A stretch of DNA of 64,000 bases from Ignavibacteriota bacterium (GTDB lineage Bacteria > Bacteroidota > Ignavibacteria > UBA10030). A program made the translations under genes and the position numbers. The stretch covers positions 3,488,001 through 3,552,000 of the forward strand of contig OY969585.1 in NCBI GenBank assembly GCA_963701295.1. Reading direction: 5' to 3'. Under the pieces are notes generated by a model. That model saw only the letters and a program-made list of their open reading frames with translations. It was not told the origin of the DNA and made no database searches. Within the stretch, counting starts at the first letter, position 1. Each line of letters starts with the position of its first letter. Below, one piece after another: positions 43,468-63,857 of the stretch.

Positions 43468-43487
43468 GCTTAACGGATGGGCGCTGA
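43468..43487 (-). repeat. attC remnant (R'/L' arm only)
   Basis: gcttaacggatgggcgctga matches the arm at 49551. Confidence 0.65.
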
Positions 43488-43563
43488 TCGCACACGATCT
43501 CCTTTGTTTGCTTTCTATTATATATATTCTTTATCAACGGAACAGTAATCTGTCGGTTTCTCC

Positions 43564-44820
43564 TTACGAACCAGAAGGATTTACTATCTTGCCAATAAAC
43601 AATATCGTTCCAGATTGATGTTCACGAATGGCAAAAATAAAAGGATGATCAATGCGCATAACATTGATTTCAGGTCTACCGGGGTATACAGCTGTTATTC
43701 CAACACCTATTATTGTCACAGCAGCAGCCTCTGTCCCTTCCTCATCAACATCCACATACGTTTTGTGTAATACGTCGGAAACGAATAATCCGCCAATAGC
43801 ACTTATGTGACTAAGGTCTGCCCTCAAAGGGTCAAACGCTATTCCCATACCTAGTGCCTTCAATTCATCCTTCAATGATTGAGAATATTTCAGCGTAAAT
43901 TTAGGCATATATACATCGACTTTTGCTGAATCTAATTTGTTTATAATTGTATTCCATTGAGCTTGCGTCAGTGCCGATGCAAATTGATCAATGGAAATTC
44001 CGGCAGAAGGTAATATAATCGTCATACTATATGACCGATCACTGTAAGGTAAATCTATCGCTTGTACAGAACTATCTGCATAATATGCATAGGTGTCTTC
44101 CTGGCTCATTAACTTGCATGTTGTAACGCTTCCATCTTCGCATGTGAAAGATGCATCTTTAGTACCCGATGTGTCAAATTTATACGTCCACGTCCCTTTA
44201 AAATATATTGCATTGATGAGATACATTACGATATCGGATGGAATATTGCCATCTATTATCGTCGGGATTTTACCGTTTGTCTTCGTGTTCACCCAATTGT
44301 TGATGGCTTGTGATGCACTGGGCAGAGTAAAATTCAGAGAGTCCACTTCTGCATCGAAATAGTTTTTATTGACATTCAAGAAATTGGACAACACCGGAAA
44401 TCCACCTCTATACCAGATAGAATTAGCATTTTGGAATGTGACGTGAGCATCAAGGGTTGTTAATAAGGCAGAGACATTTTTATACGCATTGTTTATATCA
44501 TTCAATGACATACCAGCATCGCCAAGCGCCTGTTCCAACGAATCAAGCGTAGAACCATTTGCACCATTGAGCAGCATGCCAAATGCCATGGAAACACTAA
44601 AGGGAGAGATGAACACGTTCTTGTTTTGTTCACTTCCGTTGATTCGGGCAAAGAGCTTGAAGCCGAATGAATTATCAGATGAGACAATGGTATTTTCTAC
44701 TATATCAAGATGACGGATATTTGGCTGAACTTGTGACGGTTCAGTGCAATTAGTTCGACAACCCAATAAAACAGTTGTGGCAATTACGAAAACAAGAATT
44801 AGAAATATTGTTTTATTCAT
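43564..44820 (-). CDS. Serpin-family lipoprotein
   Basis: NVFISPFS, NAIYFKGTW, EEGTEAAA hinge, DHPFIFAI; lipobox LLGC. Confidence 0.93.
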   Translation of the reverse strand: MNKTIFLILVFVIATTVLLGCRTNCTEPSQVQPNIRHLDIVENTIVSSDNSFGFKLFARINGSEQNKNVFISPFSVSMAFGMLLNGANGSTLDSLEQALGDAGMSLNDINNAYKNVSALLTTLDAHVTFQNANSIWYRGGFPVLSNFLNVNKNYFDAEVDSLNFTLPSASQAINNWVNTKTNGKIPTIIDGNIPSDIVMYLINAIYFKGTWTYKFDTSGTKDASFTCEDGSVTTCKLMSQEDTYAYYADSSVQAIDLPYSDRSYSMTIILPSAGISIDQFASALTQAQWNTIINKLDSAKVDVYMPKFTLKYSQSLKDELKALGMGIAFDPLRADLSHISAIGGLFVSDVLHKTYVDVDEEGTEAAAVTIIGVGITAVYPGRPEINVMRIDHPFIFAIREHQSGTILFIGKIVNPSGS

Positions 44821-44943
44821 AAGACGCTCCTTTGTATGAGAATAAATAGAACAAGTCCATCCTCTTCACTTTTAAGCCGGAGGCTCATACGCCTTGGACT
44901 TACAAATCCGTACCCACTGTTGCAAATCATAAATTTTGAAAAG

Positions 44944-44977
44944 CGTTCATTCCGTCAGCTTGAGTGCCTGGTTAGGC
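44944..44977 (-). repeat. attC remnant (R''/L'' arm)
   Basis: ttcattccgtcagcttgagtgcctggttaggc; stop codon of ORF 44972..45388 lies inside R''. Confidence 0.8.
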
Positions 44978-45388
44978 AGCATTACTTTGTCCCGACGAAT
45001 ATTTCGATTCAAAATACTTTTTTTGGCATTCCTTCCAATCCATAAATCCAACCCACCCAAACATTACGACCATTGGAAGAACAACGAATACTATTGTATA
45101 TAATATTTTTGCTTCATACGACAGAAACCAAGTCAAAAGCAATGACAGAGGTAGCCCATAGAGCAGGCTAAATTTCAACGAGTAAGCAATCTGCTTATTC
45201 TTAATTCTTTCAAATTGAACGACACGTTTCTTCATGCTCTTTTCTAAAAAAAAGAATAAAGCAAACAAAAGAAATAATATTACAAATATTCCGACAACCA
45301 TCATATTTAATGGCGGTGGATTAAATATCAATCTTACCAATAGTGGAACAAAGAAAATGAATGGAATATATTTATTTTTGTTTTCCAT
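44972..45388 (-). CDS. Small 4-TM hypothetical cassette protein
   Basis: GAGGAG RBS, hydrophobic segments, TAA overlapping the attC R'' box. Confidence 0.7.
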   Translation of the reverse strand: MENKNKYIPFIFFVPLLVRLIFNPPPLNMMVVGIFVILFLLFALFFFLEKSMKKRVVQFERIKNKQIAYSLKFSLLYGLPLSLLLTWFLSYEAKILYTIVFVVLPMVVMFGWVGFMDWKECQKKYFESKYSSGQSNAA

Positions 45389-45412
45389 GTGTCTCCTCGT
45401 TTTGATAATGTT

Positions 45413-45953
45413 ACCTAACGGATGGCGGCTAAGTCCCGATTTGATCTTCGATCAAATCGAGTATCCCGTACAGCGGGACTGACGTGCTGATAACTTTTGC
45501 GCCAGAGGCGCATGTGCCTTGGGCACACAATATACACAAAACGAACAAAGTTCATTCTAAAAAGTTTATTATTAATAACCAAACCTCTGCTCGCCATGCT
45601 TGGCGTACCACACCTGCCCCGCGTTTTTGCAGGGCTCATTCCGTTAGCTTGAATATTATGACAAAGTCAAGCCGATTTCAAGAGTACCAAATTGACCGAT
45701 TTGTAATTCGGAATATAACCGACTCCGACCACACTAACGCACACACCACCAGGTGAAACGAGCTTTCTCCATTGAATAGCCTTTGCTGACGTACATACTA
45801 TCTAGCTTCTGCGACTTGAAGAGTTGGGTCTTCTTCAAGCTGTAGGCTCGATGCGCCTTGAGCCGCGTTAGACTTCTTCAACTCTTCCTTGGTGTATGAC
45901 TTGTGTACCTTCCGTTATTTATGTCTTTAGTCTAATGGAACCGCTGGTTATGT
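45413..45953 (-). repeat. attC interrupted by three insertions
   Basis: acctaacggatggcggctaag...ttccgttagcttgaa[287-bp element]ccgctggttatgt. Confidence 0.8.
45651..45940 (-). mobile_element. Non-autonomous IS110-family element (bridge RNA plus ends, no transposase)
   Basis: GAA repeated at both ends; removal restores the attC; junction promoter TTGACT-N17-TAGACT; internal guides match target and donor; residual transposase-like tail YIPNYKSVNLVLLKSA*. Confidence 0.75.
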
Positions 45954-45963: not shown

Positions 45964-47276
45964 TCATCTAAGTAAAACAAGTTTCTTCGTTTCTGTAAAT
46001 GTTCCGGCTTGCAAACGATAAAAATAAATTCCGCTCGACATATTTGCCGCATTCCATTGTTTAGAACAATTTCCCGCTGACATTTCTTCCGAGACAAGTG
46101 TTGCAACTTCTCTTCCTAATAAATCAAATACTTTTAATGATACAAACGATTCTTTTGGAAGATCATAAGAAATAGTAGTTGTTGGATTAAATGGATTGGG
46201 ATAATTCTGACTCAGAGTAAATCTCTTTGGCTGAGAAGAAGGTTGCTTTACATTAGTCATTAAATCAGAAAGAGGCCGCCTCCACGCACCGCCACCCTCA
46301 GTTCCGACCAAGAGATCCTTGCCGCCTTTCCCATCGGGAGATACGGTGACAGTCCAGTCCCAAGGGTTCATCGAGGCCGAATGAATGTCAGTCCAATGAG
46401 CACCGTTGTCAGTAGAAAAAAAGACACCGCCACCCCATGTCCCAACAAAGATATTTGTGTCACCTGTCTCTTCGGGAGATACGGCGATTGAATTGATAAA
46501 AGTGGTTGTGAGACCGGAATTAACGGCAGTCCAATTAATGCCGTTGTTTGTGGAAAGAAAGATCCCATTATGTGTACCTGCAAAAAGATTCGTTCCACTA
46601 ACAGCAAGAGCATTTACATTGGTATTAGCTAGACCTGAGTTGACGGCAGTCCAATACGTGCCGTTATTGGTAGAAAGAAAGACTCCGCCACCCTGAGTCC
46701 CGGCAAAGATATTTGAGCTGTCCGTTCCGTTTTGGGTTACGGCCAGAGCATAGACTGTATCGTTCGTCAAACCAGAATTGACAGCAGTCCAGTGTGTCCA
46801 ACTTGACCCGTTAAAGGCTGAGCGAAATATCCCGTTGCCTTTAGTACCGACAAAGAGATTTAAGCTATCGGTCCTTCCAGGTGATGGACTCACGGCAAGT
46901 GACCAAATATCCGTGTTCGATATACCGGAATCGACTGCAGTCCAATTTGTCCATCCAGTTCCATTATAGATCGATAGAAAAACCCCATGGTGAAATGTGC
47001 CTGCAAAGAGAAGCGTGTCAGATGCTGTAAGAACAGTGGCAACAATATTCGTAGATCCAAATGGATCCCAGCGTGTTCCATTGTTAGTCGATAGAAAGGC
47101 TCCACCATCGGTTGTTGAAAAGAGATACGTGCCGCCTGCCCCGTTTGGAACGACGGCAAAAGAAAGAACAGCATAATTAGTTAACCCGGAATCAATAGCA
47201 GTCCATTGAGCAGAAGTTTCAGCCGGCAAAAAGAACAATCCACCAATGAATAAAACAGCAACGAAAAGAACTTCAT
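45964..47276 (-). CDS. Beta-propeller (BNR/YVTN-like repeat) protein with T9SS C-terminal domain
   Basis: Repeats GVFLSTNNGxxWTAVNSGL; QNYPNPFNPTTTI...KKLVLLR. True start likely ATG 47276 after GAGGA, with a 1-bp homopolymer slip; the track's extension runs into the attC. Confidence 0.85.
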
Positions 47277-47326
47277 AAGATTTTCCTCTTTTAATTGTTC
47301 TTTTTAGGTAATTAAATAAGAATGCA

Positions 47327-47512
47327 ACATAACGGACGGGCGCTAAGCTGCGGCGCTGCAAACGTTCAACATGCTGATAACGGAACAAATTCATTGTACT
47401 TATTTTCATATTAAAGCAAAATCTCTGCTTGTCATGCTAATTGTAGCGAACCTGCCCGCCATACTTTATATTTTGGCGCGCTCATTCCGTCAACTTGAGC
47501 GCCCGGTCAGGC
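47327..47512 (-). repeat. attC site (186 bp)
   Basis: acataacggacgggcgctaagctgcgg...ttccgtcaacttgagcgcccggtcaggc; stop of the upstream ORF lies in R''. Confidence 0.88.
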
Positions 47513-47917
47513 GGTAATTTTATCCTTTCTATCTAAATATTCAGCCAATGACAAAAATTTCTTCGGCCATACATATCCATTCTCTTCGCTTAGGAGCACT
47601 CCAATTCCTTTTACCGAAGAATTATCAATCGGTCCATAGACGTGTGGAAAAACCGATGAAGTACTTATATGCTGTGTTCCAGCTCCTTTTTCCGGTGCTG
47701 CCGATTCGTATTTTGTTTGTGATTTTAACTTTAATGGATCGATTTTGAGAAGTAATAATTTATCCTCAACATTCGAATAATAATCATTGGCAACTGAGAT
47801 TACTGAAGCTTCGAGTGCGCAATGAACAAAACCATTTTCGTCAAAATCGATAGGGATATAACTATCTCCTTTGATTAAATGCAGATAGTCTTTTTCTTTT
47901 ACGATATGATAAATCAT
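47507..47917 (-). CDS. DUF952-family protein
   Basis: MIYHI, GFVHC, LLLKID, FPHVYGPI. Confidence 0.85.
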   Translation of the reverse strand: MIYHIVKEKDYLHLIKGDSYIPIDFDENGFVHCALEASVISVANDYYSNVEDKLLLLKIDPLKLKSQTKYESAAPEKGAGTQHISTSSVFPHVYGPIDNSSVKGIGVLLSEENGYVWPKKFLSLAEYLDRKDKITA

Positions 47918-47939: not shown

Positions 47940-48170
47940 GCCTAACGGACGGCAACTAAGCTGCCGCAACGAGAAGCCGCAAGTTGCTGAATACAATCCA
48001 AGTTTATTCTGAAAAGTTTATTATTAAATATCTGAACCTCTACGCGCCATGCTTAATGTACCCATTTACCCGCCATGCTTTATCTTTGGGCGGGCGCTCA
48101 TTCATAATTAGTATCACGCTTCGCGTGATTCATTCTTCTCGACAAGCCGAGCTTGAGCGCCTGGTTAGGC
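47940..48170 (-). repeat. attC site (231 bp, with a hairpin insertion)
   Basis: gcctaacggacggcaactaagctgccg...agcttgagcgcctggttaggc. Confidence 0.85.
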
Positions 48171-48338: not shown

Positions 48339-48618
48339 TTATCCCATTAGCTTATCGAAGTCTTCCACACTTACCGCTGGTGCTGTACGAAACGCAATCC
48401 CTAATAATTTAGTCAAGGCTACTGAGATCTTCATCGCTTGCTCAAAATCAGGCAGATCTATGATAAGAACTAAATCTAATTCCCCGAGCAGTGCAATATC
48501 CAGCCTTGATCTTTCCACCATGCTTCTTGATTAAAGCGTTGGCTTTATCGGTGCGTTTCGCGCTGATTGACTTTAGCGCATCTTGTGAGTAATTACCAAA
48601 CATCAGAAAAGTAGTCAT
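48339..48618 (-). CDS. GYD-domain protein; 1-bp frameshift near 48496
   Basis: MTTFLMFGNYS...GGKIKAGY joined to ALLGELDLVLIIDLPD. Confidence 0.75.
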
Positions 48619-48728
48619 ATCAATCTCTCCTTTCTTTTGGTGTTTGAGGACGCGACTACCATGACTCATTGGGATTCTCCAGGCAAATTTGACCTGAGAG
48701 CGGATAATAATTAAAGTGAAAGTTTCTT

Positions 48729-48763
48729 TCTAACATGGGCGGACTCTCATAAAGTGGTCAGGC
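48729..48763 (-). repeat. Collapsed attC remnant
   Basis: tctaac...ggtcaggc; the following gtcaggcaaagtatttt is complementary (with G-T wobbles) to aaaacatttcgcctaac at 49541-49557. Confidence 0.5.
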
Positions 48764-48779
48764 AAAGTATTTTGCATAA

Positions 48780-49496
48780 TCAAAAACTATAACTTAACTG
48801 AAGTTGTAGACCATTCTTACTCGGTACAATGTTGAAATTGTACTGTTTCTTTTCCATTATTTTGTTGTAGAGTTGTTCGTTATACTTGTCAACCTGAGCA
48901 GAAGCATCTATCGCTTCCCAAACAGCAGAAACAAGGGCAACTCCAAACCCGATATAAAACCAAGCGGTAATTCTTGTTTCCGTATTGTAATAATAATTCC
49001 AGGAGTATCCATATGGATTCGGAGTTGAGTAAACATCTGACGTATAGCCGGCAGTTAATGCAAGAACAACTCCGCCCACTCTAGCAGCAGAGAAGAGAAG
49101 TCCTCGTCCCCAATTGCCGGCGTACAAATGTCCAGTGCTCGTGAGGAGAATCGAAAGAAGAACAGCCGTGGTGGGACTTTTCTTTTCATTCTCGTAGTAT
49201 ATCATTTTTTGAGCATCGGATTGACTACTTGATTCCTGCTGACGCGGCTGTTGCTGAATCTGTGAATCGGTTGAAACCTTCTCTTTGGTGAACTTGAGTA
49301 TGTTGCTATATTTTACTGTTAATGTTGATCCTCCAATCAATTCAATTTTCACATATTTCTTTGGAACGTTTTCGATTATCGTTCCCTTGAGAATGTCTCC
49401 ATTTTTGAGATAGATAACATCTATACGCTCTTGTCCAAGAGCATAAAACAAGGGGAAGAGAATTAGAACAACGATTGCGATTAGATTGCTTTTCAT
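48780..49496 (-). CDS. Exported/membrane hypothetical protein (DVIYLKNG N-domain + hydrophobic C-domain)
   Basis: Likely start MKSNLIA; signal peptide; KSPTTAVLLSILL..GHLYAG. Confidence 0.7.
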   Translation of the reverse strand: MKSNLIAIVVLILFPLFYALGQERIDVIYLKNGDILKGTIIENVPKKYVKIELIGGSTLTVKYSNILKFTKEKVSTDSQIQQQPRQQESSSQSDAQKMIYYENEKKSPTTAVLLSILLTSTGHLYAGNWGRGLLFSAARVGGVVLALTAGYTSDVYSTPNPYGYSWNYYYNTETRITAWFYIGFGVALVSAVWEAIDASAQVDKYNEQLYNKIMEKKQYNFNIVPSKNGLQLQLSYSF

Positions 49497-49550
49497 TGAA
49501 GTATCCTTTCGATTTTTAGACATCGTTATGATCCGGATATAAAACATTTC

Positions 49551-49769
49551 GCCTAACGGATGGGCGCTAAGCTGCGGCGCTGAGAACTTTCAAATTGTAC
49601 GAAACGAAACAAGTTCATTCGCAAAACCAAATTAATAAACACTCAACTTAATAATTACAATAAACAAAATTAACTAACGAGAACCCACAACAAGTCATGT
49701 TTAACGTACCACGCTTGCCCGCCGCATTTTTGGCGGGCTCATTCCGTCAGCTTGAGCGCCTGGTGAAGC
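49551..49769 (-). repeat. attC site (219 bp)
   Basis: gcctaacggatgggcgctaagctgcgg...ttccgtcagcttgagcgcctggtgaagc. Confidence 0.85.
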
Positions 49770-49780: not shown

Positions 49781-50590
49781 TTACCTTTTCTGCTGATTAT
49801 ATTCGTTCACATACTTTGCAATTTCCAGCATTGGGGCAATCCATATCTGTCCTTCGTTTTCTTTGATAAAATGCAGCAATTTGCTATGTGCCTCCAAAGA
49901 AACATTCAGCGAATGTTCACCCCCGACTCCATGAAAAAGGAATACAATAAGGGAGTTACTCTCCATTGCTTTCTTCACCAAAGCAATAAGCACATCACCA
50001 GGTTCTCCGTTAATCATATAGGATCCGATATCGTATAAATCAATTTCATTGATTCTTTTCATTTTTCCCTCTACACCTCTCGCCGCAATAAACGTCCTTT
50101 TTATTTTCGGTACATACGATGAATCACCTGCATGAGTATCTCCACATGGATATGCGAATGTTCTCATTTTCTCTCCATCGATAGCATTCAATAAAACATT
50201 GGTCATATCAATTTCGTCGCTCATTCGTTGCATTGAATATGAATGGAGATCATAATCAGGTTGAACCCATTTTCTATCAGGTCTATTTCCTTCGCAAGGA
50301 TGAAATAATGTATGATTTCCAAGCTCATTTCCTTTCGATGCGATGATTTTCCATTCAGCTGATCGTTCGCGAAACCCTTGGAAAAATCCTGATATATAAA
50401 ATGTTGCCTTTAGACCAAGAGAATCTAATAGAGGAACAACATGATCTAGATGCACATTCAAAGCATCGTCATATGTAAGACAAACTGCACATCTCTTATT
50501 GTGCCATATGGTATTTTCTTGTGCATGTACTAGCGCTGCCATAAGAGTGATAATAAAACAAAACAATATCAATATTCGTGTTATTTTCAT
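49781..50590 (-). CDS. Polysaccharide deacetylase (CE4/NodB-like)
   Basis: LTYDD, ELGNHTLFH, FAYPCG, FLFHGVG; signal peptide. Confidence 0.85.
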   Translation of the reverse strand: MKITRILILFCFIITLMAALVHAQENTIWHNKRCAVCLTYDDALNVHLDHVVPLLDSLGLKATFYISGFFQGFRERSAEWKIIASKGNELGNHTLFHPCEGNRPDRKWVQPDYDLHSYSMQRMSDEIDMTNVLLNAIDGEKMRTFAYPCGDTHAGDSSYVPKIKRTFIAARGVEGKMKRINEIDLYDIGSYMINGEPGDVLIALVKKAMESNSLIVFLFHGVGGEHSLNVSLEAHSKLLHFIKENEGQIWIAPMLEIAKYVNEYNQQKR

Positions 50591-50603
50591 CTGAAAGGAT
50601 CCC

Positions 50604-51527
50604 TTAGTTTATAATTTTATTCTTTCTGAGAAATTCTCGTATCGCTGCAAAACTGTCTATAAATGATTGCCGGGAAAAACCACCATGCATTGCACCTTGA
50701 ATTGTAACCAATTTATTGGGCACACCTATTGAATCTAGAGCCGCATGAAATTTTACGGTATTATCATATACTGAAACATCATCTTTACTCCCCTGAATAG
50801 ATATAATAGGAGGAAGTCCTGGACGCACATAGTTGATAGGCGATAACTGCTTAGCAAGCTCCTTACGATTTTCAATGCTGCCAAACCATTCAATTGCATA
50901 ATGTTTTGCACTTGGGCCGTCAAGAAGATCGGCAACATCGGTTATGCCGTACCAATTAATGATAGCAGCGACATGAATCTGCAATTCGTCCGCTTTATTC
51001 CAGCGAACACTATTATCGGTGGGATACCGACGATCAAATGCCGATTGTGCTTGTAGCATCCCCGTCATCAATGCTAAGTGTCCACCTGCTGATCCGCCAG
51101 TAAGGACAATCTTCGACGTATCAACATTATATTCTTTAGCATGAGAAACGAGCCAGCGAAGAGCGCATCGACAATCTTCAACAGCTGCAGGTGCTAACGA
51201 ATTTCGGGCTAAACGATATTCCACATTGATAACAACCCAGCCAAGTGACAAATATGGCAGAAGCTGCAGAACATTGCGTTCCTTCTGGCCTTCAACCCAA
51301 CCGCCACCGTGGAAAAGTAATAATGCTGGCACAGTGGTATTCATTGTCTTAGGCAAGTAGAGATCAAGTTTTAAATCTGTATTATTTGCTGTCGAATAGA
51401 CAATATTGGGATATATTTCATATTCATCAGATGCATAGTCAATCCAAGGATCTGTACTTATTGATTGTGTGTGGCATACTGTTGTAAACAAAAGGACTAT
51501 GAGGGTTAAAGAATTATATCTGATCAT
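50604..51527 (-). CDS. Secreted alpha/beta hydrolase (acetyl/feruloyl esterase-like)
   Basis: HGGGW, EYRL, GGSAGGHL; start MIRYN at 51527 after GGAG. Confidence 0.85.
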   Translation of the reverse strand: MIRYNSLTLIVLLFTTVCHTQSISTDPWIDYASDEYEIYPNIVYSTANNTDLKLDLYLPKTMNTTVPALLLFHGGGWVEGQKERNVLQLLPYLSLGWVVINVEYRLARNSLAPAAVEDCRCALRWLVSHAKEYNVDTSKIVLTGGSAGGHLALMTGMLQAQSAFDRRYPTDNSVRWNKADELQIHVAAIINWYGITDVADLLDGPSAKHYAIEWFGSIENRKELAKQLSPINYVRPGLPPIISIQGSKDDVSVYDNTVKFHAALDSIGVPNKLVTIQGAMHGGFSRQSFIDSFAAIREFLRKNKIIN

Positions 51528-51554
51528 AACTACTCCATAAAATAAATTTGATAA

Positions 51555-51636
51555 TCTGCTTGCCAGCCGTCTTTTTGGCGGGCTCATTCCGTCAGCTTGT
51601 CACGAAATGACCACTTCGTGAAGCGCCTGGTTAGGT
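51555..51636 (-). repeat. Partial attC (R''/L'' arm with a 22-bp palindrome inserted)
   Basis: gggctcattccgtcagcttg[tcacgaaatgaccacttcgtga]agcgcctggttaggt. Confidence 0.8.
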
Positions 51637-51650: not shown

Positions 51651-52340
51651 TTATTTTTTCTGTTTAAGCATCCATTCATATATTTCAGGATTCTTTTCAT
51701 AGAGAAACTGTAAATGATGTCCTTCATTTTCTAAGCGTGTATATTTGATATTACCATTGCATTTTTTCAATGCGTTTACTATTCGCTCTGTTTCGCTAAT
51801 TGGAATTATAGTATCTGCTGTTCCATGAAAAGCCCAAATAGGAGTATTTTTGAGATTACAAATTCTTGAAGTGTCGCTATCAAAACATCCGCCACATAGG
51901 GGAATTAAGGCAGCAAATTTATCAGGATAATCCATTCCGACCCCATAGACACCGTATCCGCCCATGCTTATTCCTGTAACATATACTCTGGTACTATCAA
52001 TCTTATACTTAGTAATTAAATCCAAATATAAACTATCGAACCAATCCTCTAATGTCCAATATTTGTCGTCAGGGCATTGTGGTGAAGCAATGATAAAATC
52101 AAAGTTCTGTCCCTTCTCAATAAGATAAGGCAAGCCATACCCTTTTAACTTGTTTAAATCGTTTCCTCTTTGTGAGGCGCCATGTAAATAAATTACAAGC
52201 GGATACTTATTTGTCTGCTTAGAACAGTCTCTTGGTAAATACAGCAGATAACTATAATTCGCTTTTGTCTTTATCTGCGAATAGGAATAAACATGAAAAG
52301 AAAGAAGTAAAATAAAAAAGAATCTCAATTTGCTTTTCAT
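51651..52340 (-). CDS. Phospholipase/carboxylesterase (peptidase S9-like)
   Basis: YLHGA, SPQCP, GISMGG, FHGTAD, GH. Confidence 0.85.
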   Translation of the reverse strand: MKSKLRFFFILLLSFHVYSYSQIKTKANYSYLLYLPRDCSKQTNKYPLVIYLHGASQRGNDLNKLKGYGLPYLIEKGQNFDFIIASPQCPDDKYWTLEDWFDSLYLDLITKYKIDSTRVYVTGISMGGYGVYGVGMDYPDKFAALIPLCGGCFDSDTSRICNLKNTPIWAFHGTADTIIPISETERIVNALKKCNGNIKYTRLENEGHHLQFLYEKNPEIYEWMLKQKK

Positions 52341-52367
52341 CTGGTTGAATGCTTTTCTCAAAACGCA

Positions 52368-52556
52368 ACCTAACGGACCGGCGCTAAGTTGCGCCGCTGA
52401 TAACTTTCAAAGTGTACTACACGAAACGAGTTCATGCTGAAAAATTTATTATTAAGAACCGAAACTTATGCAAGCCATGCTTAACGTACCCATTTACCCG
52501 CCATGCTTTATTTTTGGGCGGGCGTTCATTCCGTCAGCTTGAGCGCCTGGTTATGT
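52368..52556 (-). repeat. attC site (189 bp)
   Basis: acctaacggaccggcgctaagttgcg...ttccgtcagcttgagcgcctggttatgt. Confidence 0.9.
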
Positions 52557-54249: not shown

Positions 54250-54264
54250 GGTATGTTGAGTCTG

Positions 54265-54475
54265 TGACAATTATTTTCGTATCCTAATCCATTGGCAAAG
54301 TCATAGGAGAGATAGGAGCCGCTAGATATCTTCCCAGAAGAATATCGTTAACCAGATACATCTCCCTATGACTTTCCGCTTCTCAAGAATCTGAACAGTA
54401 CTTTGAGATCCATATTTCTTTCCCGTGGAATCCCGTATAACGCACGAGTCAAGATCACAAGGAAGCTGCCAATGT
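54265..54475 (+). ncRNA. Predicted bridge RNA of the IS110 element
   Basis: Outer stem ATTGGCA/TGCCAAT; stem AAAGTCATAGG/CCTATGACTTT enclosing GAGCCGCT and TAACCAG; second loop with ACAGTAC. Confidence 0.75.
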
Positions 54476-54513
54476 ATTTCTTCTCTTAACCTCTATTTCA
54501 AGGAGCTTTTGCT

Positions 54514-55537: not shown

Positions 55538-55622
55538 TACTTACGCTGTCTCTTGTTCTTTGAAATATTTTTTACTCTAACTCTTGACTTTTACCACAGT
55601 ACCTGGTTAGGCAGCAATTGTA

Positions 55623-58282
55623 CTAACGAAGTAAAATGAGTTTTTTTGTTTCTTTAAATAAACCTGCATCCAAACAATAGAAATATATACCACTCGAGAA
55701 ATTCGATGCATCCCATTGTATAAGATGTTTCCCCGCTGTTTCTTCCCCATTTACTAAAATTGATACTAATCGTCCAAGAGGATCATAGATTTTCAACATT
55801 ACATACGATTGGGACGCAAGTTCGTAGCTGATGGTTGTTTCAGGATTAAAGGGATTGGGAAAATTATTGTTGAGTTTAAACTGTTTAGGGATTTCTTTAT
55901 GTTCTTCAACATCGGTCGTTTTTTGAAATGAAATCCAGTTGATGTTGAAACCTCCAGTGATAACCTCCAAACGGAGTACCTTATTCACACCCGATTTTAT
56001 TGTGATATTCGACAGGGAAACGGTCTTCCATTGCTGCCATCCGGAAGTATTAGGTATACTTATCGTGCCAAGATCGGTGCCGTCAAAAATAATTTTTAAT
56101 TTGCCACTTGCACTAACTGAAGCAATGCGCACGTCGAGCATTGATATATCAGCATTGACGTCAACCGTATAGGTCAACCATTCGCCATCACTAATCCAAC
56201 CGACATCATAGCCACCCCCTGTATCGCTGCATGTCTCTATATCCACGTCATCAGTTCTGTACTGACCGCCATTATTTCCGGCATCTGTATCAAAATAAGA
56301 AACACCGTTACTTCCGAGATCATAATTTTCAGCTTCTATTTTCCCGGGAATTTGAGCAGGCGTACCTGAATACGGACCGGTTTAATCAATGTTAATACTG
56401 AAGTTGTAATTGAAGGATAAGAGTAACCATCATTGTTCTTACCGGTAATACGATACATATACAAGGTGCTGCCTGATAAACTGGAATCGGTAAATACAGT
56501 ATCGTTGGCAATGGTACTTCCGATCGAATCAAATTTAGTATTGCCGTATCGTTCTATCAGGTAGCCGGTTTCATTAGAAATATTATTCCAGACAATCTTT
56601 GCCTGATTAAACGAAGGCGATGTCGCAGAAACGATAACCGGGGTTTCCATATTGTTTTGCATCTCTTTTGGGCCTATAGCCCAGGTGTAAGGCAGGAATG
56701 GATCTTCTTCATAATCGAACCAGTCGAAATCTGCAGGGTTAACATTTTTAAATCCATTCCCTGATGCGTACATTCCGATGAAAACACCGGTAAAGCCCCC
56801 GATGACTTCTGTGGACAGGTCTTTTGTTAATGCAGAACCTATCAGCTCGGCTGATTTTCCTTCCTGCTGTATCCAAAACTGGTACTGAAGGTCTGTTGCA
56901 CTGATCCGTAAGATGATATCGCCGTCAGGAATTTCTTTATAATTGAGTCCAACAACTTTATCCTGCAAATATTTCCGAAGCATTATCACTCGTTTCCCTG
57001 CAAACATAGTAATGAGAAGATCATAATGATTTTTATCGTCTCCACGAACCACCAAACCAACTTCTTCATTTTCAGCAGTTGGAATAAAACTAATGTTCGT
57101 TGATGCAACAAGATTAAATGCCGTTTGTCTGCGACCTATAAAAGCAGGCGAATCTTGTTCTTTAAAACTAATTTTTGAACCATTTAGCCTGAGAAATCCA
57201 GGTTTTGCACTAAGCGACCAATCTGCAGCATAAGGATTACGGATAAAATTCCAAGGCAGGCGCAATGCCACACTGTCGAAATTATCTCGGATGGAATCTT
57301 TTTCCCAGACATACTGAGGAAGATTTGGAGCGTTGTACACGGAATCTACGATTCCATTCGTTCCACCTTTAGGCCACCCATCGGAATTCCAGGCAATAGG
57401 TGCCAGAAATGTTTCACGACCTAAATGATGATAGTTGCCACCTTTGGGTCTGATACCGAGGCAAACCAACCACCAGCTACTATCTTGGAGTTGAACTAAA
57501 TCAGCGTGTCCAATAGCCTGAAAAGGATTATTGGGAACATCCTTATGCGAAATAACCGGGTTTATAGGACTTACAGTATAAGGTCCCCAAGGTGATTGAC
57601 TCCTCTGAATTACTTCCATGTGCTGATAACCCGTTCCTCCTTCAGCAGACATCAAATAATAGTATCCATTAATTTTATACAAATGTGAACCTTCGGGAGA
57701 TGCTCCACCAGTCCCTGAAGCTATCTTTGTCAATGGCTTAATGAAGTTGCCCGTTTTAGGATTCATTGTACCTAGCAAAAAACTACCATTATTGTCAGGA
57801 CTAACATAGTACATGCTATCGTTTTCGAACAATAGCGAAGGATCTACGTACCAGTAGTTTATCCAATGAGGATCGGACCAAGGACCAGCGGGATTTGTGG
57901 CAGTTACATAAAACTCCCCTTGAGAACCTTGCCCGCCATAGTTTGTGCAAATTACATAAAAAGTGCTGTCTTTATAGCGCAAAGTCGGGGCATATTGACC
58001 ACCCGAACCTGATGCACAACCCATCAAAGGATTGTTGCTTGCACGGGATAAAACATATCCAATCATTTTCCAATGCACCAAATCTTTACTGTGATATATT
58101 GGCAACCCGGGAAAATACTCAAAAGTAGATGTTATCAAATAATAGTCATCACCAACACGGCATATACTTGGATCAGGATTCATACCAGTAATTATTGGGT
58201 TTCGAAAGGTCGTTTGCGCAAGGACCTTAAATGTAAGGGCAATCAATCCTAAAAAAATTATTGTCGTTAATCTGTTCCACAT
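55623..58282 (-). CDS. GH43 xylosidase/arabinofuranosidase + FN3 + CBM6 + T9SS CTD; 1-bp frameshift near 56380
   Basis: NPDPSICRVGDDYY, PEGSH, LGRETFL, GGFTG; frame shift restores GPYSGTPAQIPGKIEAENYD...GWISDGEWL...NFPNPFNPETTI. Confidence 0.88.
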
Positions 58283-58325
58283 AATGTTTGTTCCTTCTCT
58301 TATTCATTTACGTTATACAATTGCC

Positions 58326-58445
58326 GCTTCATGGATGGCGGTTAAGCTGCGACAACGTGAACTTCCAAATTGCACTACCCGAACCAAGTTCATTCGCTTC
58401 ATTTTCAAATCTGTACTAAACCTCTATACGCCAAGCTAAATGCAC
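58326..58445 (-). repeat. Partial attC (degenerate R'/L' arm and body)
   Basis: gcttcatggatggcggttaagctgcg...gaaccaagttcattc...aacctctatacgcca. Confidence 0.7.
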
Positions 58446-58567
58446 CAACGATTTTACGGTCAATCCCGAAATCACTATTGTTAATATCGATAGTAAGTAT
58501 TTTTTCATATTCCAATTTTTTTTAGATGTTTATTATAAATTTTAAACGCGTGAATTCATTATGATTA

Positions 58568-60208
58568 CTATTCTTTTAGTATTTTAAATACCATCGCAAT
58601 ATTGTTTGGAATAATATTCGGTTTTTTTATTACAAGTGAATCAGAATATTGTTTCCACTGAAGCTTTTCTTTGCTGCCAAGTATTCCGATGTTTTTAATT
58701 TTGGCATTGTCTTTCGTTTTGCCAAGCGATTTCAAGCATACATCATCTGTTGGTACGCCCAATACAGTTGCATAAAGCATATTTCCTTTCTGGTTGAATC
58801 GAATATCTTTTGAAGAGAATTTGCTCTTCCCTTCGTTAAACCCTGGTGAATTAACCGTCCTTACTGTTTCGGTAGAGGGACCTTCGCCATAGATTAGCCA
58901 AGGACGTGTATCGTAAATACTTTCTTTATTAATGTCCATCCAAGCAGCAATTCCATCAAGTACTGCAATTTCTTTTTCGTCTATAGTCCCGTCACCACGA
59001 ACCGGTATGTTTAGTAGCAAGTTGCCATTTTTGCTGACAATATCGACAAGCATGTGAATCACAGTTATCGCTGATTTGTATTCGTTTTTCTCATAAATCG
59101 ATCTCTTATAATGCCAGTCGCCAATGCATGTACATGTTTGCCAAGCTTCAGCTTGAATGCTCTCAGGCGCTCCCCGCTCTACATCCCATACTATACATTT
59201 TTTTTGCTCATCGGTAAGAACTTTCCCAAACAAAACAGCTTCGAGCTTACCATTGTGGGTTGCCATATTATGATTGTAAAAGTGGGCAGCAATTTTTAAT
59301 CCGGCATCACTTATTGGATAAAGCGGAAGGGCAGTATCATCGAAATAAAGCAGATCGGGGTTAAACCGGTTAATCAGGTCAACAGTGCGGTTGTAAAACT
59401 TATCACAGTAGTTTTGCGAAGGTATGGAAGCGCCATTGCCCCATGTCCATTGCCCGAATATGGAGTTGATATCATAACTACCTTCGCTTAGCAAATGGTT
59501 TTGAGCGTAGAGCTCCTGCGGGTCAAGTCCTTCCCACCATGTTCCTTTACCATCGGTCTTTGTGAGTTTCCCATCGTATGGAACACCCACAAGCTCTCCA
59601 TTTTTATCAGAATGTTGAGAGGTTTCCAACCACGTCCATGAACGTGATGCATGTACACTCAATCCGAATGGAAGGCCATATTTTTTAGCAGCTTTAGCCC
59701 AACCGTCAATAATATCCTTTTTGGGCCCAACGTGTACAGTGTTCCATTCCTGGTACTTACTATTCCACAAGTCAAGATTATCGTGATGGTTTGCCAGGGC
59801 AAAGAAGTATTGGGCACCTGCCCGTTTATAAAGTGCCACAAGTTTTTCCGGATCCCAATTTTGAGCTTTCCAGTCATTAATAACTTCCTTAAAACCTGCT
59901 TTGGATGGATGTCCATAATGTGCAACATGCCATTTATATTGGTCGCTGCCTTCGTTGTACATGTACCGCGCATACCAGTCACCTTGCTCAGGCTGACACT
60001 GTGGGCCCCAATGAGCCCAAATGCCAAACTTGGCGTTACGAAACCATTCGGGCGCTTTATATTGCAGGAGCGACTGCCATGTAGCTTCGAACTTTCCCGG
60101 GGCAGCAGGTTCGTTACCTGGACGAACAGGACAAGGATAACTGGTTTGTGCAAAAGATATTTGCTGAAAATAAAGTGTAACAATTAATAAAAAAGTTGTT
60201 TTCATCAT
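58568..60208 (-). CDS. Alpha-L-fucosidase (GH29)
   Basis: KFGIWAHWG, NHHD, LLYFD, DIVSKNGNLLLN. Confidence 0.92.
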   Translation of the reverse strand: MMKTTFLLIVTLYFQQISFAQTSYPCPVRPGNEPAAPGKFEATWQSLLQYKAPEWFRNAKFGIWAHWGPQCQPEQGDWYARYMYNEGSDQYKWHVAHYGHPSKAGFKEVINDWKAQNWDPEKLVALYKRAGAQYFFALANHHDNLDLWNSKYQEWNTVHVGPKKDIIDGWAKAAKKYGLPFGLSVHASRSWTWLETSQHSDKNGELVGVPYDGKLTKTDGKGTWWEGLDPQELYAQNHLLSEGSYDINSIFGQWTWGNGASIPSQNYCDKFYNRTVDLINRFNPDLLYFDDTALPLYPISDAGLKIAAHFYNHNMATHNGKLEAVLFGKVLTDEQKKCIVWDVERGAPESIQAEAWQTCTCIGDWHYKRSIYEKNEYKSAITVIHMLVDIVSKNGNLLLNIPVRGDGTIDEKEIAVLDGIAAWMDINKESIYDTRPWLIYGEGPSTETVRTVNSPGFNEGKSKFSSKDIRFNQKGNMLYATVLGVPTDDVCLKSLGKTKDNAKIKNIGILGSKEKLQWKQYSDSLVIKKPNIIPNNIAMVFKILKE

Positions 60209-60246
60209 ATATTAATTTTTTACAATTGATATTAATGCCCTTTACA

Positions 60247-62292
60247 TCATTTGATTTCAATAAATTCCGGCTCAAAAGGTAAAATTGTAAAATTACCGGT
60301 ATAATCTTTATCAAAGAGGATACTCCGCGAGTTTCCTTTCATATGAATCTCTTTTGATTCACCACTTACATTCATATATAGGAAATGGTTCTTATCTATT
60401 TGTCTTGCCATTACATCCGAAGGAACATCTGGACCCTTATTTATTGACAGCTCGCTTATCAGCTCATCAAGCAAAGGATTAAGTATGTCAACTTTTGCAG
60501 GAAGGCCAACATAAATTGCTCTGCCTTTACCATATTTATTAGAAGTTATAATTGGGTAGTCTTTATCTAAGCTGGTTATGCTGCCGAGAATTTCTGCACC
60601 TTTAGGTTCGATAACATCAAACCGTGACGATTCTGTAGTAATAGCTTTCCCTTTATAGGTAAATTCAATCATTTTACCCTTAAATGATTTTCTGGATATT
60701 TCATTTAACGCTTCAGGTTCTTCGAAACTTCCAACACGTATTCCGAATATATCATTTAAACGGCCAGGGTGGGTAGAAGCAAACACCTGTCCGGTTTCAT
60801 CAACAACAGCCGAATTACTTGTCATAATAACAGTTCCGCCATTTTTCACAAAATTGCAGATTTTAGCAGCAGTTACTTCGTCCATTACCGCTACGCCAGG
60901 TATAATCAGCAATTTGTAGTTTAACGGGCTTTTGGTAATCTCAACAATACGGACATCCATGTTACGATGATAAAACAAATCAAAACAACTCTGCAGCTGG
61001 TTTTGATGTTGTTCCGGAAAATAGCTGCTTGCTATCTGACTGGGAAAGGAAAAAGCTAATCCTACTTCAGCCTGAACTTTATAAGGGAAATACTTCTCAA
61101 TCTTTTTGAATTCTGCAGCGATTTTTTTGTATTCTTCGTATTTGCGGTTTGGAATTCCGTCCCAATCTATCATACCTTCCAGGTATTGTTCTTCTCCGCC
61201 GTGCATACTTTGCCAGGTCCATCCGCAAACCATCTCGTTACCATACATAAGCGTAGCATAGGCTGACTTTCTGATAGAATTGGGAACAGCAGTCATAGTT
61301 GTAAATTCAGTATTCCAGTAAGGATTTGTGCTTTCAAATTGAACACGCGAAATCCCAAACAAAGCGTCCATAACACCCCAATTGGTAGTTAAAGATAGTC
61401 CCGGATAAAAACCAGTACCTTCGCGGGTCATTTTACCTGAATAGGCAATTGGGGAATAATCAAAATATTTCATTTGGCTATAATACCATGCATTGGTGTT
61501 TACTAAGGCATTCGGAGCATTTGTGTTCACTACATCAATGACCTTAAATAGGAACTCAACGATTTCATCTGAAACAAAACGTCTGAAATCGAGCATTCTT
61601 TCAGGCACATCGGTAGTGTGGGTTGCTACAGGAAAGCCAATTTCTTCAAACTGGTTTATCCTTCTCGACCAGCGTTGGGTTGCCCATGCTTTATTCAAAT
61701 TATCAAGGTTGGTATATTTATTCTTTATCCAGGCAATGAATCTTTGTCGGGCTGTTTCAGAATAGGAAATCCGGCCATCCCCAGATTCGTTGTCAACTCC
61801 GAAAGCCAACAATGCCGGATGATTTCCATACCGTCTAGTAAGTGAATCAGCATACCTCGCTGCATATTTCTGGTACATCGGGTCGCCAATATCTTCCATA
61901 TATCGATGATTTGGGTATTGCACATCGCCATTTGCATCTGTAATATCAATTGAAGGATATTTGTGGTGCAGCCAGATTGGGGCAGGCCGAATAGCAATAT
62001 CTAAAATTACTTTAATTCCAGCTTCGTTCATCAAATCCATAACCTTATCAAACCAATCAAAATCGAATTTTCCATCAGATGGTTCGTAACTGTCCCATGC
62101 TAAATGACCCATTCGTACAACTTTGAATCCAGCATCTTTCATTAGCTTGATATCACTTTTTATTTTTTTAGGATTTTTATCGTCATGAGGATGATAGTTA
62201 GCTCCAACATATAACTCCCGAGCTTTTAAAACAAGTCCCTGAGAGAATAATATGGCGGTCAGGATTAGTGTTATGTAAAATTTTGTTTTCAT
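60247..62292 (-). CDS. Beta-galactosidase (GH42)
   Basis: GANYHP, AWDSYEP, DNE, GGEEQY, trimerisation domain. Confidence 0.88.
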   Translation of the reverse strand: MKTKFYITLILTAILFSQGLVLKARELYVGANYHPHDDKNPKKIKSDIKLMKDAGFKVVRMGHLAWDSYEPSDGKFDFDWFDKVMDLMNEAGIKVILDIAIRPAPIWLHHKYPSIDITDANGDVQYPNHRYMEDIGDPMYQKYAARYADSLTRRYGNHPALLAFGVDNESGDGRISYSETARQRFIAWIKNKYTNLDNLNKAWATQRWSRRINQFEEIGFPVATHTTDVPERMLDFRRFVSDEIVEFLFKVIDVVNTNAPNALVNTNAWYYSQMKYFDYSPIAYSGKMTREGTGFYPGLSLTTNWGVMDALFGISRVQFESTNPYWNTEFTTMTAVPNSIRKSAYATLMYGNEMVCGWTWQSMHGGEEQYLEGMIDWDGIPNRKYEEYKKIAAEFKKIEKYFPYKVQAEVGLAFSFPSQIASSYFPEQHQNQLQSCFDLFYHRNMDVRIVEITKSPLNYKLLIIPGVAVMDEVTAAKICNFVKNGGTVIMTSNSAVVDETGQVFASTHPGRLNDIFGIRVGSFEEPEALNEISRKSFKGKMIEFTYKGKAITTESSRFDVIEPKGAEILGSITSLDKDYPIITSNKYGKGRAIYVGLPAKVDILNPLLDELISELSINKGPDVPSDVMARQIDKNHFLYMNVSGESKEIHMKGNSRSILFDKDYTGNFTILPFEPEFIEIK

Positions 62293-62357
62293 GCTTGCCT
62301 TTAATGGTATTATATCAAAATTATTTTTTTAGCAATGTATAAAGTAAAATTGTTGCC

Positions 62358-62508
62358 GCCTAACGGACGAGCGCTAAGCTTCTGCACTAAATATTTTCAA
62401 TATATACAAAATAAGTTGATCGTACCAACTTTCAATGAAACACGAAACCTCTGCTTGTCATGAATTTTGCAGTGAGCTCATTCCCTCAGCTTGAGCTGCT
62501 GGATAGGA
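62358..62508 (-). repeat. attC site (151 bp, variant R'')
   Basis: gcctaacggacgagcgctaagct...ttccctcagcttgagctgctggatagga. Confidence 0.82.
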
Positions 62509-62630
62509 AGAGGCGTTTCCAGTCCTCATTAATTACAAAGAGTATCATTTACGATTCAAATATATCTACTGCTGTCCCATTATTTATGAGACCGCAATTT
62601 CAACTGTTGTGACCTCTACGTAATTCGTTA

Positions 62631-63503
62631 TTAAAATAATACACCTACATGGAGTATTAAATTAGCCATAGATGCAGTACCAGATATGTCGGAATTTACA
62701 TTAAAACTGCAAGAGGTTGATGCAATTAATTTTAGACTTACTATAAACTTCTTATTTATCTGTATTCCAGCAGAAGCTCCCCAAGCAAATCCAGTACCGC
62801 TTGTTACATCTGCGATATCAATTGTTTGACCCTCATACGAAGCACTCATCGATGGAAACCACCCTACCATCAAACCAAGCTGTACCGATACATATCCTAC
62901 TAGTGCTGGTGAAAATTGAGATTGAGCGCCTAAACCAACCATAGGAGTCAAAGAATACCACGACCCAGTATTAAGTGTTGCCGAACTCGGCATACCCTGA
63001 CTCTGTTGAGCTTGTGTAAAACTTTTATTATCAAAAGAATTAGATGAAAAAGTAAGAGAGGCGAGACCAAATAATATTTTATTTACTGGTAAATCGTATT
63101 CCGCGCTAAAAGAATAACCAATTTTAGCATAACCGTCAGTGTTTAGATCGCTCGTTCCACCAAAACTTCCTACTGGAAACGCAATTCCGCCTGAAAGAAC
63201 GAATCCACCTTTCCATTCCTCTGTTTCACTAGAAGAAGTCATCCCAATTTTTCCTGTTGATTGAGTTTCCACTGTGTCTTTCGTCATTTTTTCGATATCC
63301 AAAAAATTATAAATAAAAATATTTCCATCTGATGTCTGAATTTTAATTGATTCGTTTGGGATTTGTTCAATAATCTCTCCTTTTATAACAGACCCATTTT
63401 TTAAATATACAACATCCCTTGTTTGATCTTGAGAAAAAGCCAAATTAGCAAACAGGATAAGAAGAAGAAAAAGAATAGGCAATACAACAAAGAATTTTTT
63501 CAT
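62631..63503 (-). CDS. Outer-membrane beta-barrel protein with DVVYLKNG N-domain
   Basis: Signal peptide; amphipathic strands; C-terminal GVLF. Confidence 0.7.
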   Translation of the reverse strand: MKKFFVVLPILFLLLILFANLAFSQDQTRDVVYLKNGSVIKGEIIEQIPNESIKIQTSDGNIFIYNFLDIEKMTKDTVETQSTGKIGMTSSSETEEWKGGFVLSGGIAFPVGSFGGTSDLNTDGYAKIGYSFSAEYDLPVNKILFGLASLTFSSNSFDNKSFTQAQQSQGMPSSATLNTGSWYSLTPMVGLGAQSQFSPALVGYVSVQLGLMVGWFPSMSASYEGQTIDIADVTSGTGFAWGASAGIQINKKFIVSLKLIASTSCSFNVNSDISGTASMANLILHVGVLF

Positions 63504-63703
63504 GGCGGTTCCTTATTAAATAGGTTATTTAATTTTATTAGTGATTTATGAGAGTACTAATACAAGACTTATCCACAATTATGGCCAATGTCCATTAGGA
63601 ATTTTCCATCCCAGTATTGGCAACCCTGCAGAGATAAATATTTTTTTTGTACCTAAAATGTAAACAAATATCACCCACAAAAATGTGATATAATAAAAAT
63701 GCG

Positions 63704-63857
63704 CCCTAACGGATTGGTGCTAAGCTGCGGCGTTGATAACTATCATAATGCAACCAACGAAACAAGTTCATACTGGTTCTCTCAATCTTGCACTAACCTA
63801 TGCTCGCCATGAATTTTGCACCCAGCTCATTCCGTCAGCTTGAGCGCCTGGTTAGGC
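63704..63857 (-). repeat. attC site (154 bp)
   Basis: ccctaacggattggtgctaagctgcgg...ttccgtcagcttgagcgcctggttaggc. Confidence 0.9.

Follow-up and report, generated by a model that had tools for sequence, protein, structure and literature searches.

A sedentary integron with unusually long attC sites, several attI-headed arrays and a conserved open frame in the attC loop in an Ignavibacteriota chromosome

The closest described systems are the sedentary chromosomal integrons, whose attC sites have a published length range of 57-141 bp (PMC5371416), with loops quoted as 20-100 nt (PMC4889954) and sites of up to 132 bp elsewhere on record (PMC3607928). Some attC sites contain short open reading frames (ORFs; Hanau-Bercot 2002 and Jacquier 2009, as described in PMC8876359 and PMC11511950). 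Untranslated stretches have been linked to lower downstream expression, mini-ORF exceptions being called anecdotal, and attC removal mattered for a minority of cassettes (PMC11511950). Integrons are also on record in Chlorobi and Ignavibacteriae (PMC9024848). We describe an integron found in a 64,000-nucleotide stretch of an Ignavibacteriota chromosome (the window, G000:C1:3488001-3552000), taken from a single-contig genome of 3.64 Mb, 99.3% complete, which we call G000.

We are practically certain that the window carries part of a sedentary chromosomal integron of 35 kb, namely its distal 20 kb, which is partly decayed. To the fuller account, which joins a long-attC integron, an integrase acting in trans and a translated mini-ORF, we give a probability of roughly 58%. 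In this account, the integrase IntI would excise and insert single-gene cassettes by using the bottom strand of long attC sites folded as hairpins, with the usual arms and an unstructured loop of about 100-145 nt. It would also act in trans on about a dozen other attI-headed loci devoid of their own integrase, and a 21-codon frame in the loop would be translated, carrying ribosomes across each site toward the next gene.

A preliminary description, made from the letters of the window, had predicted intI and attI to the right of it. Both are there, 14.4-15.7 kb past the right edge, with intI divergent from the array:

G000:C1:3566706-3567665, plus strand: intI, 319 aa without stops, 14.7 kb past the window edge, matching TIGR02249 at 453 bits (cut-off 265)
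G000:C1:3566434-3566513, minus strand: attI-like site with a GTT core and an L-like box, 270 bp upstream of intI

Among the 21 TIGR02249 matches listed, intI is the only one over the cut-off. It is the anticipated tyrosine recombinase with the IntI-specific insertion, colinear with V. cholerae IntI4 (PDB 2A3V) over about residues 6-318 with one 1-residue gap (E 4e-86), and its closest named IntI records by full-length identity (63% and 60%) are both from Bacteroidota; a genome-collection search with IntI yielded relatives of 52-63% identity only. Seven more attC sites occupy the array right of the window up to the attI-like site, at 3,566,437. When gaps of up to 8 kb are allowed within an array, an uninterrupted series of 17 attC sites leads to intI, so that the window's array is not a CALIN (cluster of attC sites lacking an adjacent integron integrase). 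The site upstream of intI is probably attI, as its tail matches the R'' of the first cassette and a homologous site lies beside intI in relatives. A loose attI pattern alone gave 13 hits in the genome and 15 in the reversed control and was not informative; therefore, our attI calls rest on homology and position.

The strongest test of attC identity is offered by the junctions between cassettes. The last four bases of a site belong to the next cassette, and should therefore complement the start of that cassette's own attC. We compared the last 4 nt of R' with the R'' of the next site in adjacent pairs, using 10,000 shuffles as control. In G000, the ends are complementary in 64 of 80 adjacent pairs (shuffled 20.8 ± 3.1, maximum 34), and in nine relatives in 111 of 122 pairs (shuffled 43.3 ± 3.6). 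Cassette boundaries thus fall at G/TT with complementary ends, and the repeats are attC sites. Their strand (minus), their consensus arms and the lengths of 151, 154, 186, 189, 219 and 231 bp given in the preliminary description all hold.

We defined strict copies as having both arms with at most two mismatches and AAC and GTT present (91 copies in G000), and a profile built from them, scanned at E ≤ 0.001, recovered 172 genomic sites, against none when the genome was reversed. At the gathering threshold, no Rfam family matched in the window. The R''/L''/L'/R' boxes, the unpaired spacer and the extrahelical bases of the bottom strand are all present. The two extrahelical bases, described previously from the window, are nearly invariant, the bottom-strand G occurring in 87/87 strict copies and the T in 86/87. 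Once these two unpaired bases are removed, the L stem forms 11-12 of 12 Watson-Crick pairs in 77 of the 87, and the spacers between boxes have a fixed length in 84. We also performed the proposed folding of bottom strands, with DNA parameters and each site folded as it lies in the array: the probability of the recombinogenic fold (pfold) exceeds 0.1 in 67/87 copies, with a median of 0.34. The energy of the whole site is not better than that of shuffles for the six full-length copies of the window (z about -0.2 to -1.7), as expected of a short stem with a long loop.

The claim that these sites are longer than the usual 57-141 bp was borne out by 90 of the 91 strict copies: one is at most 141 bp long, 60 measure 142-170 bp and 30 measure 171-199 bp. 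For comparison, stretches were fetched from 11 relatives, nine of which gave sites (145 in all); 144 of these exceed 141 bp, and 7 exceed 200 bp. The length is modular, a base of 149-160 bp being extended by an optional 30-nt GC hairpin, an optional block of about 39 nt, or both. In the literature available to us, we found no report of attC families of 150-200 bp, the longest sites being of 132 bp (PMC3607928) and 141 bp; supplementary IntegronFinder tables could list such sites.

The family is real, and its homogeneity, which had been emphasized, is only moderate: the median pairwise identity of the 91 copies is 69% (5-95% range 58-81%). Likewise, the central region is conserved in sequence, as had been noted, and not in fold. 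Covariation and consensus folding of 142 copies rule out a conserved loop fold: none of the six strongest covarying column pairs falls outside the arms (four are true partners, 87-94% pairable, and two are their neighbours), and about 100 central bases remain unpaired in the consensus.

The default attC size limit of IntegronFinder is 200 bp. The warning that default cut-offs could miss this array does not apply to that limit, since all 91 strict copies measure at most 199 bp. The risk lies more in how a model scores a 100-145-nt loop and in the 4-kb clustering gap, which would split the array in two and turn its distal 7 sites into a CALIN. As a separate observation, the proteins encoded by several cassettes of G000 and its relatives are large, reaching about 1000 aa (3 kb), and many contain repeats and a type IX secretion system (T9SS) tail; such 3-kb cassettes exceed the roughly 2 kb assumed by the 4-kb clustering rule of IntegronFinder.

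A comparison of cassette order had been proposed. Our comparison is between species, the sample holding no same-species strains. In G009, G010 and G001, IntI is 85% identical and the same downstream core genes flank the locus, and the cassettes are unrelated: gene order is not fixed. Of the two outcomes named beforehand as refuting the integron, neither is seen as far as the sequence analysis reaches, the arms having the architecture of attC as well. Indeed, at the intI loci of G009 and G010, no array ORF of at least 100 aa matched G000 at 55% identity; in their other arrays, some cassettes recur in G000 arrays. IntI homologues occur in 12 of the 15 other genus genomes and the attC family in 11 of the 15. 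The initial idea of a lineage-specific sedentary integron thus stands for its sedentary nature, given the fixed core flanks, and needs widening for the attC family, which is confined neither to one array nor to one species. Other genera and families of the class have related attC sites of 144-168 bp, with the same arms and different loops (G153 C4 L050/L051; G175 C1 L044; G241 L048/L049). Besides, G175, G110 and G206 carry attC copies of the type of this genus, which suggests cassette exchange across families. At L011:9058-9622 (plus strand), two small genes lie opposite to the array, the second with a BrnA-like antitoxin match below the cut-off; this is likely a toxin-antitoxin cassette.

The 172 sites of G000 form 12 arrays and 7 singles and cover about 250 kb, i.e., 7% of the chromosome. 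Homologues of the IntI-adjacent attI lie at 224.1, 1796.9, 2464.8, 2834.1, 3172.1 and 3446.6 kb (E 1e-5 to 1e-79), with partial or weaker ones at 1210.3 and 2388.0 kb, and the attI regions of more distant IntI paralogues of relatives match G000 at 3339.7, 1046.7, 98.9 and 1407.0 kb. For ten heads, the IntI-linked one included, an attC lies no more than 2.2 kb away on that strand; at 7 of these ten, the first cassette conforms to the junction rule. Only one of the attI heads has intI beside it. Extra attI-like cores also occur in most relatives (the control for this count being weak). Searches by tblastn and blastn beside the other arrays gave no intI remnants but a 45-residue C-terminal piece (581.7 kb) and a start-codon stub (2464.5 kb). 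Loss of intI is directly visible at two loci where G000 has attI only and a relative has an intI paralogue: the 224-kb array locus (complete paralogue in G010 C11) and the 3340-kb locus (G008 C6).

Identical cassettes occur in different arrays, with intervals of 276-1808 bp at 100% identity. Four of the five shared-cassette pairs examined are 98.5-100% identical, and their identity drops either at the cores, give or take a few bases, or within the conserved arms. It is likely that IntI works in trans on the other attI-headed arrays, and its activity at the present time appears quite probable. In the available literature, we found no report of many attI-headed arrays with one integrase, which supplements could nonetheless list, and the available part of PMC13108822 holds nothing on exchange between arrays.

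Several observations weigh against this part of the account. Exchange between repeats, through homologous recombination or gene conversion, could also have distributed the identical cassettes. A scan for the array promoter Pc gave 3 weak matches (1.6 ± 1.3 in shuffles), so that no array promoter was identified, and no LexA over the cut-off was found in the genome. Most sites of the window are damaged and its tail is therefore largely frozen. Two arrays (26 and 2 sites) are oriented opposite to the others with respect to replication. More generally, the account is built on sequence, recombination and expression being deduced from it. No joints were seen in one low-depth sequencing run of the contig, a depth too low to inform.

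Apart from these questions, the heads present features of their own. The head pairs 1796.7/3446.6 kb and 3172.1/2834.1 kb share 199-221 bp at 92-94% identity, which indicates a recent copying of attI and leader that left intI out. A tRNA-like 5' half, recognized by eye, precedes the 3172-kb head. At the locus of G010 C11 (L028), intI and an attI of one type face, at G000:C1:223.9 kb, an integrase-less attI of another type: the 223.9-kb platform has been replaced or exchanged. The isolated IntI piece, at G000:C1:581735-581886, lies far from arrays and is 98% identical over 45 residues (78% at the DNA level). The type-A attI copies, including 3566434-3566513, carry two tandem 25-bp palindromes, each framed by core-like 7-mers, in place of the direct repeats that attI1 has. 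They also hold a short frame running into the core, like ORF-11, of 6 codons in 7/7 copies and of 19-24 codons in 5; in the G010 copy, an extra base breaks the longer frame.

The orientation of the arrays relative to replication was determined from dnaA, at 976,782, which coincides with the GC-skew minimum. The bottom strand is on the leading-strand template for 141 of 172 sites and 10 of 12 arrays, the window's included, the same low-excision orientation as in 25/30 sedentary integrons (PMC5371416); a general bias in gene strand could add to it. Separately, the 26-site array at G000:C1:225026-261402 is in the high-excision orientation, yet well preserved, with the junction rule obeyed in 16/16 pairs; among its cassettes are short duplicated ones of 199-276 bp, apparently without a gene, which are also present in other arrays.

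The arrangement of array flanks points to another kind of exchange. Twelve arrays or attI loci of G009 and G010, chosen for having both flanks mappable on G000, were tallied by hand. An automated breakpoint count missed arrays across two stretches and took one cassette as a flank, and was used for the non-array background only. Six loci are colinear. In the other six, the head flank corresponds to one G000 locus and the tail flank maps far from it; for 5 of these tails, the position in G000 is distal to a different array or attC remnant, with matching polarity. In the background, 4 of 40 adjacent core blocks without an array jump, all four beside G000 array flanks. Moreover, the acyltransferase gene that bounds the window's array distally ends other arrays in G001, G004 and G009, and no array stands there in G010. 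These data are suggestive of array heads and tails being swapped between species, and no more than suggestive, as the presence of an array was itself the criterion by which loci entered the comparison.

In top-strand reading, the 63 nt that precede the crossover make up a frame of 21 codons, closed by the TAG of the incoming core. This frame is open in 83 of 88 distinct G000 copies and in 120 of 144 sites of relatives. The start codon in G000 is ATG in 49 copies, GTG in 19, ATA in 8 and another in 12 (ATG or GTG in 68/88), the codon following the frame being TAG in 81/88 and TAT in 7/88; in relatives, 100 of 144 sites start with ATG, GTG or TTG. The distance from start to core is 63 nt in 76 of 83 copies, while two upstream segments vary in length. 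Stops inside the frame occur at 0.13-0.22 of the column-shuffled expectation. We also counted stop gains along a minimum spanning tree of 170 haplotypes (183 of 232 copies in register, 155 of 169 edges, 455 changes) and obtained 6 against 33.3 ± 5.4 expected, the other five frames behaving as expected. The depletion is seen in G000 alone (3 vs 16.6) and in relatives alone (3 vs 20.5). Each of TAG and TAA is as frequent as expected, or more so, in one of the two remaining frames; therefore, these triplets are not avoided as DNA words. The synonymous share is not raised (0.24 vs 0.22), on which ground a functional peptide was rejected. This is the pattern of a frame apparently kept open for translation itself, with an unconstrained peptide. 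We lean toward a mini-ORF that is translated and, like ORF-11, aids downstream expression; unwinding or protection of the transcript is a more likely mechanism than strict coupling. Within the available literature, we found no report of attC mini-ORFs selected across a genus; supplementary tables could hold such sites.

Two other frames were considered and rejected: upstream mini-ORFs starting at two earlier ATGs have scattered stops and no conserved frame, and a bottom-strand frame, open in 73/88 copies, has no significant stop depletion.

A set of results argues against the translation of the mini-ORF. Among control codon triples, 1.3-2.0% are as depleted as stops, and one of six upstream control frames reached P = 0.01. 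In the distant attC family of G153, stops are not depleted (4 vs 5.2, with low power). As regards ribosome entry, 89 of 92 mini-ORFs score zero for a Shine-Dalgarno site, 63 of 93 cassette genes have their own, and the stop lies at a median of 37 nt from the next start, without overlap. Finally, the motif that contains the ATG is repeated with a 40-nt lag; the conservation of the start may thus have a cause other than translation.

These points bear on two other explanations. According to the first, which we find improbable, this is an ordinary sedentary integron accompanied by fossil arrays: the integrase-less arrays would be dead CALINs, and the long loop would be neutral, produced by an old internal duplication and conserved through the common descent of cassettes. 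Integrase loss at the loci compared with G010 and G008, the 40-nt periodicity of the loop with its modular steps of about 30 and 39 nt, and the lack of synonymous excess agree with it, and CALINs at conserved loci are known in Xanthomonas (10.1101/2025.06.18.660453). However, descent alone predicts neither a five-fold shortage of nonsense changes in one frame of six nor a fixed start-to-core distance beside variable segments. Among the arrays lacking an integrase, several are in better condition than the IntI-linked tail and have cassettes in common at 100% identity.

The second, which we also consider unlikely, accepts the integron and takes the loop as a DNA-level element, an internal promoter or a site for a host protein every 40 bp or so, the open frame being a side effect. 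It would account for a sequence conserved without structure and for a mini-ORF without Shine-Dalgarno site, and no internal periodicity of the 150-162-bp class is stronger than the 40-nt lag (0.057 vs a shuffled maximum of 0.023). Nevertheless, sigma-70-type matches are rarer than in shuffles (16/231 vs a mean of 35) and the Bacteroidetes -7 box reaches 33 (shuffle mean 25, maximum 33), so that an internal loop promoter of either type is rejected as not enriched; moreover, the behaviour of TAG and TAA in the other frames is not that of avoided words. A dispersed REP-like (repetitive extragenic palindromic) or small-RNA repeat, targeted by IS110 near an unrelated integrase, is scarcely credible: the Rfam result, the unremarkable whole-site folding energy and the fact that IS110-family elements also target REPs (PMC11187229) would suit it, and it is contradicted by the core complementarity of the junction test, the invariant extrahelical bases, the IntI and attI at the head with the right polarity, the co-oriented gene after most sites and the variable content.

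We therefore retain the long-attC integron with an integrase that would act in trans and a mini-ORF that would be translated. A broader picture, in which the integron would be a chromosome-wide network with one integrase, a dozen attI pads, arrays exchanging heads and tails as the main rearrangement hinges, and a selected mini-gene without Shine-Dalgarno site relaying ribosomes regardless of cassette order, is tentative and, on balance, doubtful.

The array in the window, from the integrase side to its distal end, reads as follows (window coordinates):

63704..63857, minus strand: attC, 154 bp, intact, with AAC/GTT cores, two extrahelical bases and pfold 0.67
63706..63771, minus strand: mini-ORF inside the 154-bp attC, 21 codons, ATG start, TAG stop from the core of the next cassette
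62631..63503, minus strand: cassette gene, outer-membrane beta-barrel-like (PF13505, below cut-off)
62358..62508, minus strand: attC, 151 bp, damaged (R'' AAC to ATC), mini-ORF interrupted
58568..62292, minus strand: GH42 beta-galactosidase and alpha-L-fucosidase genes, a two-gene block between two damaged attC sites and not a clean cassette
58325..58462, minus strand: degenerate attC, left arm gone and R' mutated
55623..58282, minus strand: GH43 gene and a separate frame with CBM35/CBM6 and T9SS tail, probably one interrupted gene
55601..55612, minus strand: R'' end of an attC severed by insertion of an insertion sequence (IS)
54252..55600, plus strand: IS110-family element with a frameshifted transposase (54514-55537), inserted in attC just after R''
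54085..54251, minus strand: remainder of the IS-split attC, 196 class, right arm missing
52566..54053, minus strand: cassette gene, protein with 87-nt repeats (RHS/YD-like) and T9SS tail
52368..52556, minus strand: attC, 189 bp, cores intact, with the 30-nt GC hairpin module and a low pfold of 0.0009
52370..52435, minus strand: mini-ORF in the 189-bp attC, 21 codons, open
51651..52361, minus strand: cassette gene, alpha/beta-hydrolase (S9/esterase-like)
51540..51636, minus strand: attC that has lost its right arm; the left half bears a short palindromic insert
49781..51587, minus strand: BD-FAE esterase and polysaccharide deacetylase genes
49551..49769, minus strand: attC, 219 bp, with both optional modules, R'' AAC to CAC, mini-ORF (49553-49618) open
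48448..49547, minus strand: cassette genes of 255 aa and 73 aa without Pfam match
47940..48170, minus strand: attC, 231 bp, i.e., the 189 class with a palindromic insert of about 42 nt in the left arm
47507..47917, minus strand: cassette gene, DUF952
47327..47512, minus strand: attC, 186 bp, R'' AAC to GAC
45964..47409, minus strand: cassette gene, repeat (sortilin-like) protein with T9SS tail; longest ORF, true start probably further in
45413..45652, minus strand: attC remnant with hairpin inserts, R'' lost
44972..45388, minus strand: cassette gene, 138 aa, without Pfam match
44843..44977, minus strand: left half of an attC
43564..44820, minus strand: serpin gene, the most distal cargo
43468..43495, minus strand: what remains of the right arm of the most distal attC, identified by eye and scoring under the profile threshold
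43010..43065, no strand assigned: remnant of the same IS110 end, joined to an R''-like core
41961..42725, plus strand: core acyltransferase gene bounding the array, present in 16/16 genus genomes

The window contains the old, decayed tail of the array. The copies of six lengths had been called intact, which was overstated: those of 151, 186 and 219 bp have lost the AAC of R'' and that of 231 bp has an insert, so that the clean ones are those of 154 and 189 bp. Six further sites in 43.4-58.5 kb are half-sites or split by an IS. Short palindromes, REP- or MITE-like (miniature inverted-repeat transposable element), interrupt the attC arms and loops at 45414-45652, 47940-48170 and 51540-51636, with similarly altered arms elsewhere in the genome. 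Several cassette proteins bear a T9SS tail; together with the closest named IntI records, these tails place the host in the Bacteroidota lineage. The glycosidase block at 55623-62292 (GH43, fucosidase, GH42) is flanked by decayed attC sites, and its GH42 gene, used as query, was found in only 4 of the 15 other genus genomes, at 76-84% identity.

Elsewhere in the genome, an IS1111-type element is inserted just after R'', opposite to the cassettes, in 9 copies that are 99.8-100% identical and 2 at 81-83%. Its transposase is of the IS110 family (NF033542, 169 bits vs 140), its position in attC is fixed according to the junctions of the 11 copies, and its non-coding region lies downstream of the gene. 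The IS1111-attC group (Tetu and Holmes 2008, Post and Hall 2009, as cited in PMC11187229) has the same fixed insertion behaviour. G000 differs by a second, IS110-type element (54252-55600 in the window), with its non-coding region upstream of the transposase and nearly the same position.

The integron itself is textbook; the notable parts are the attC length, the dispersed attI heads and the selected mini-ORF. With sedentary chromosomal integrons such as that of Vibrio cholerae (PMC5371416, PMC4889954), it has in common a divergent intI, an attI, R and L boxes, two extrahelical bases and lineage-typical repeats, as well as the bottom strand on the leading-strand template and an opposite-oriented toxin-antitoxin-like cassette (here BrnA-like, below cut-off). 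It differs by attC sites of mostly 149-199 bp instead of 57-141 bp (120-129 in Vibrio), by about 170 sites over 12 arrays instead of one super-integron and by the lack of a LexA over the cut-off. For the integrons of Chlorobi and Ignavibacteriae, the available part of PMC9024848 gives no lengths, attI copies or mini-ORFs. In this lineage, sites of up to about 200 bp are the norm, which raises the working upper limit of attC length from about 141 bp, and cassette surveys based on short-loop models may therefore undercount these bacteria.

Like CALINs, 11 of the 12 arrays are without an adjacent intI, intI loss being one listed route to CALINs and mobilisation in trans having been proposed (Cury et al., in the available part). 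Unlike CALINs, at least 8 of these 11 are still headed by an attI, and these attI sites belong to several lineages. This departs from the picture of one integrase, one attI and one array, and suggests that arrays are rearrangement points.

Finally, the mini-ORF has the geometry of the ORF-11 of attI1 and of the short ORFs of class 1 attC sites, the stop being the TAG at positions 3-5 of the incoming core (PMC8876359), and it resembles ORF-11 in its unconstrained peptide and in the termination-reinitiation proposed for it. ORF-11 has a Shine-Dalgarno site, which the mini-ORF does not. Here, such a frame is built into most attC sites of a genus, with a fixed length and a population-level signal of selection. 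Whereas published attC mini-ORFs have been called anecdotal, some 180 natural copies point here to selection on openness and not on the peptide, offering a testable answer to how promoter-distant genes are expressed across long untranslated hairpins.

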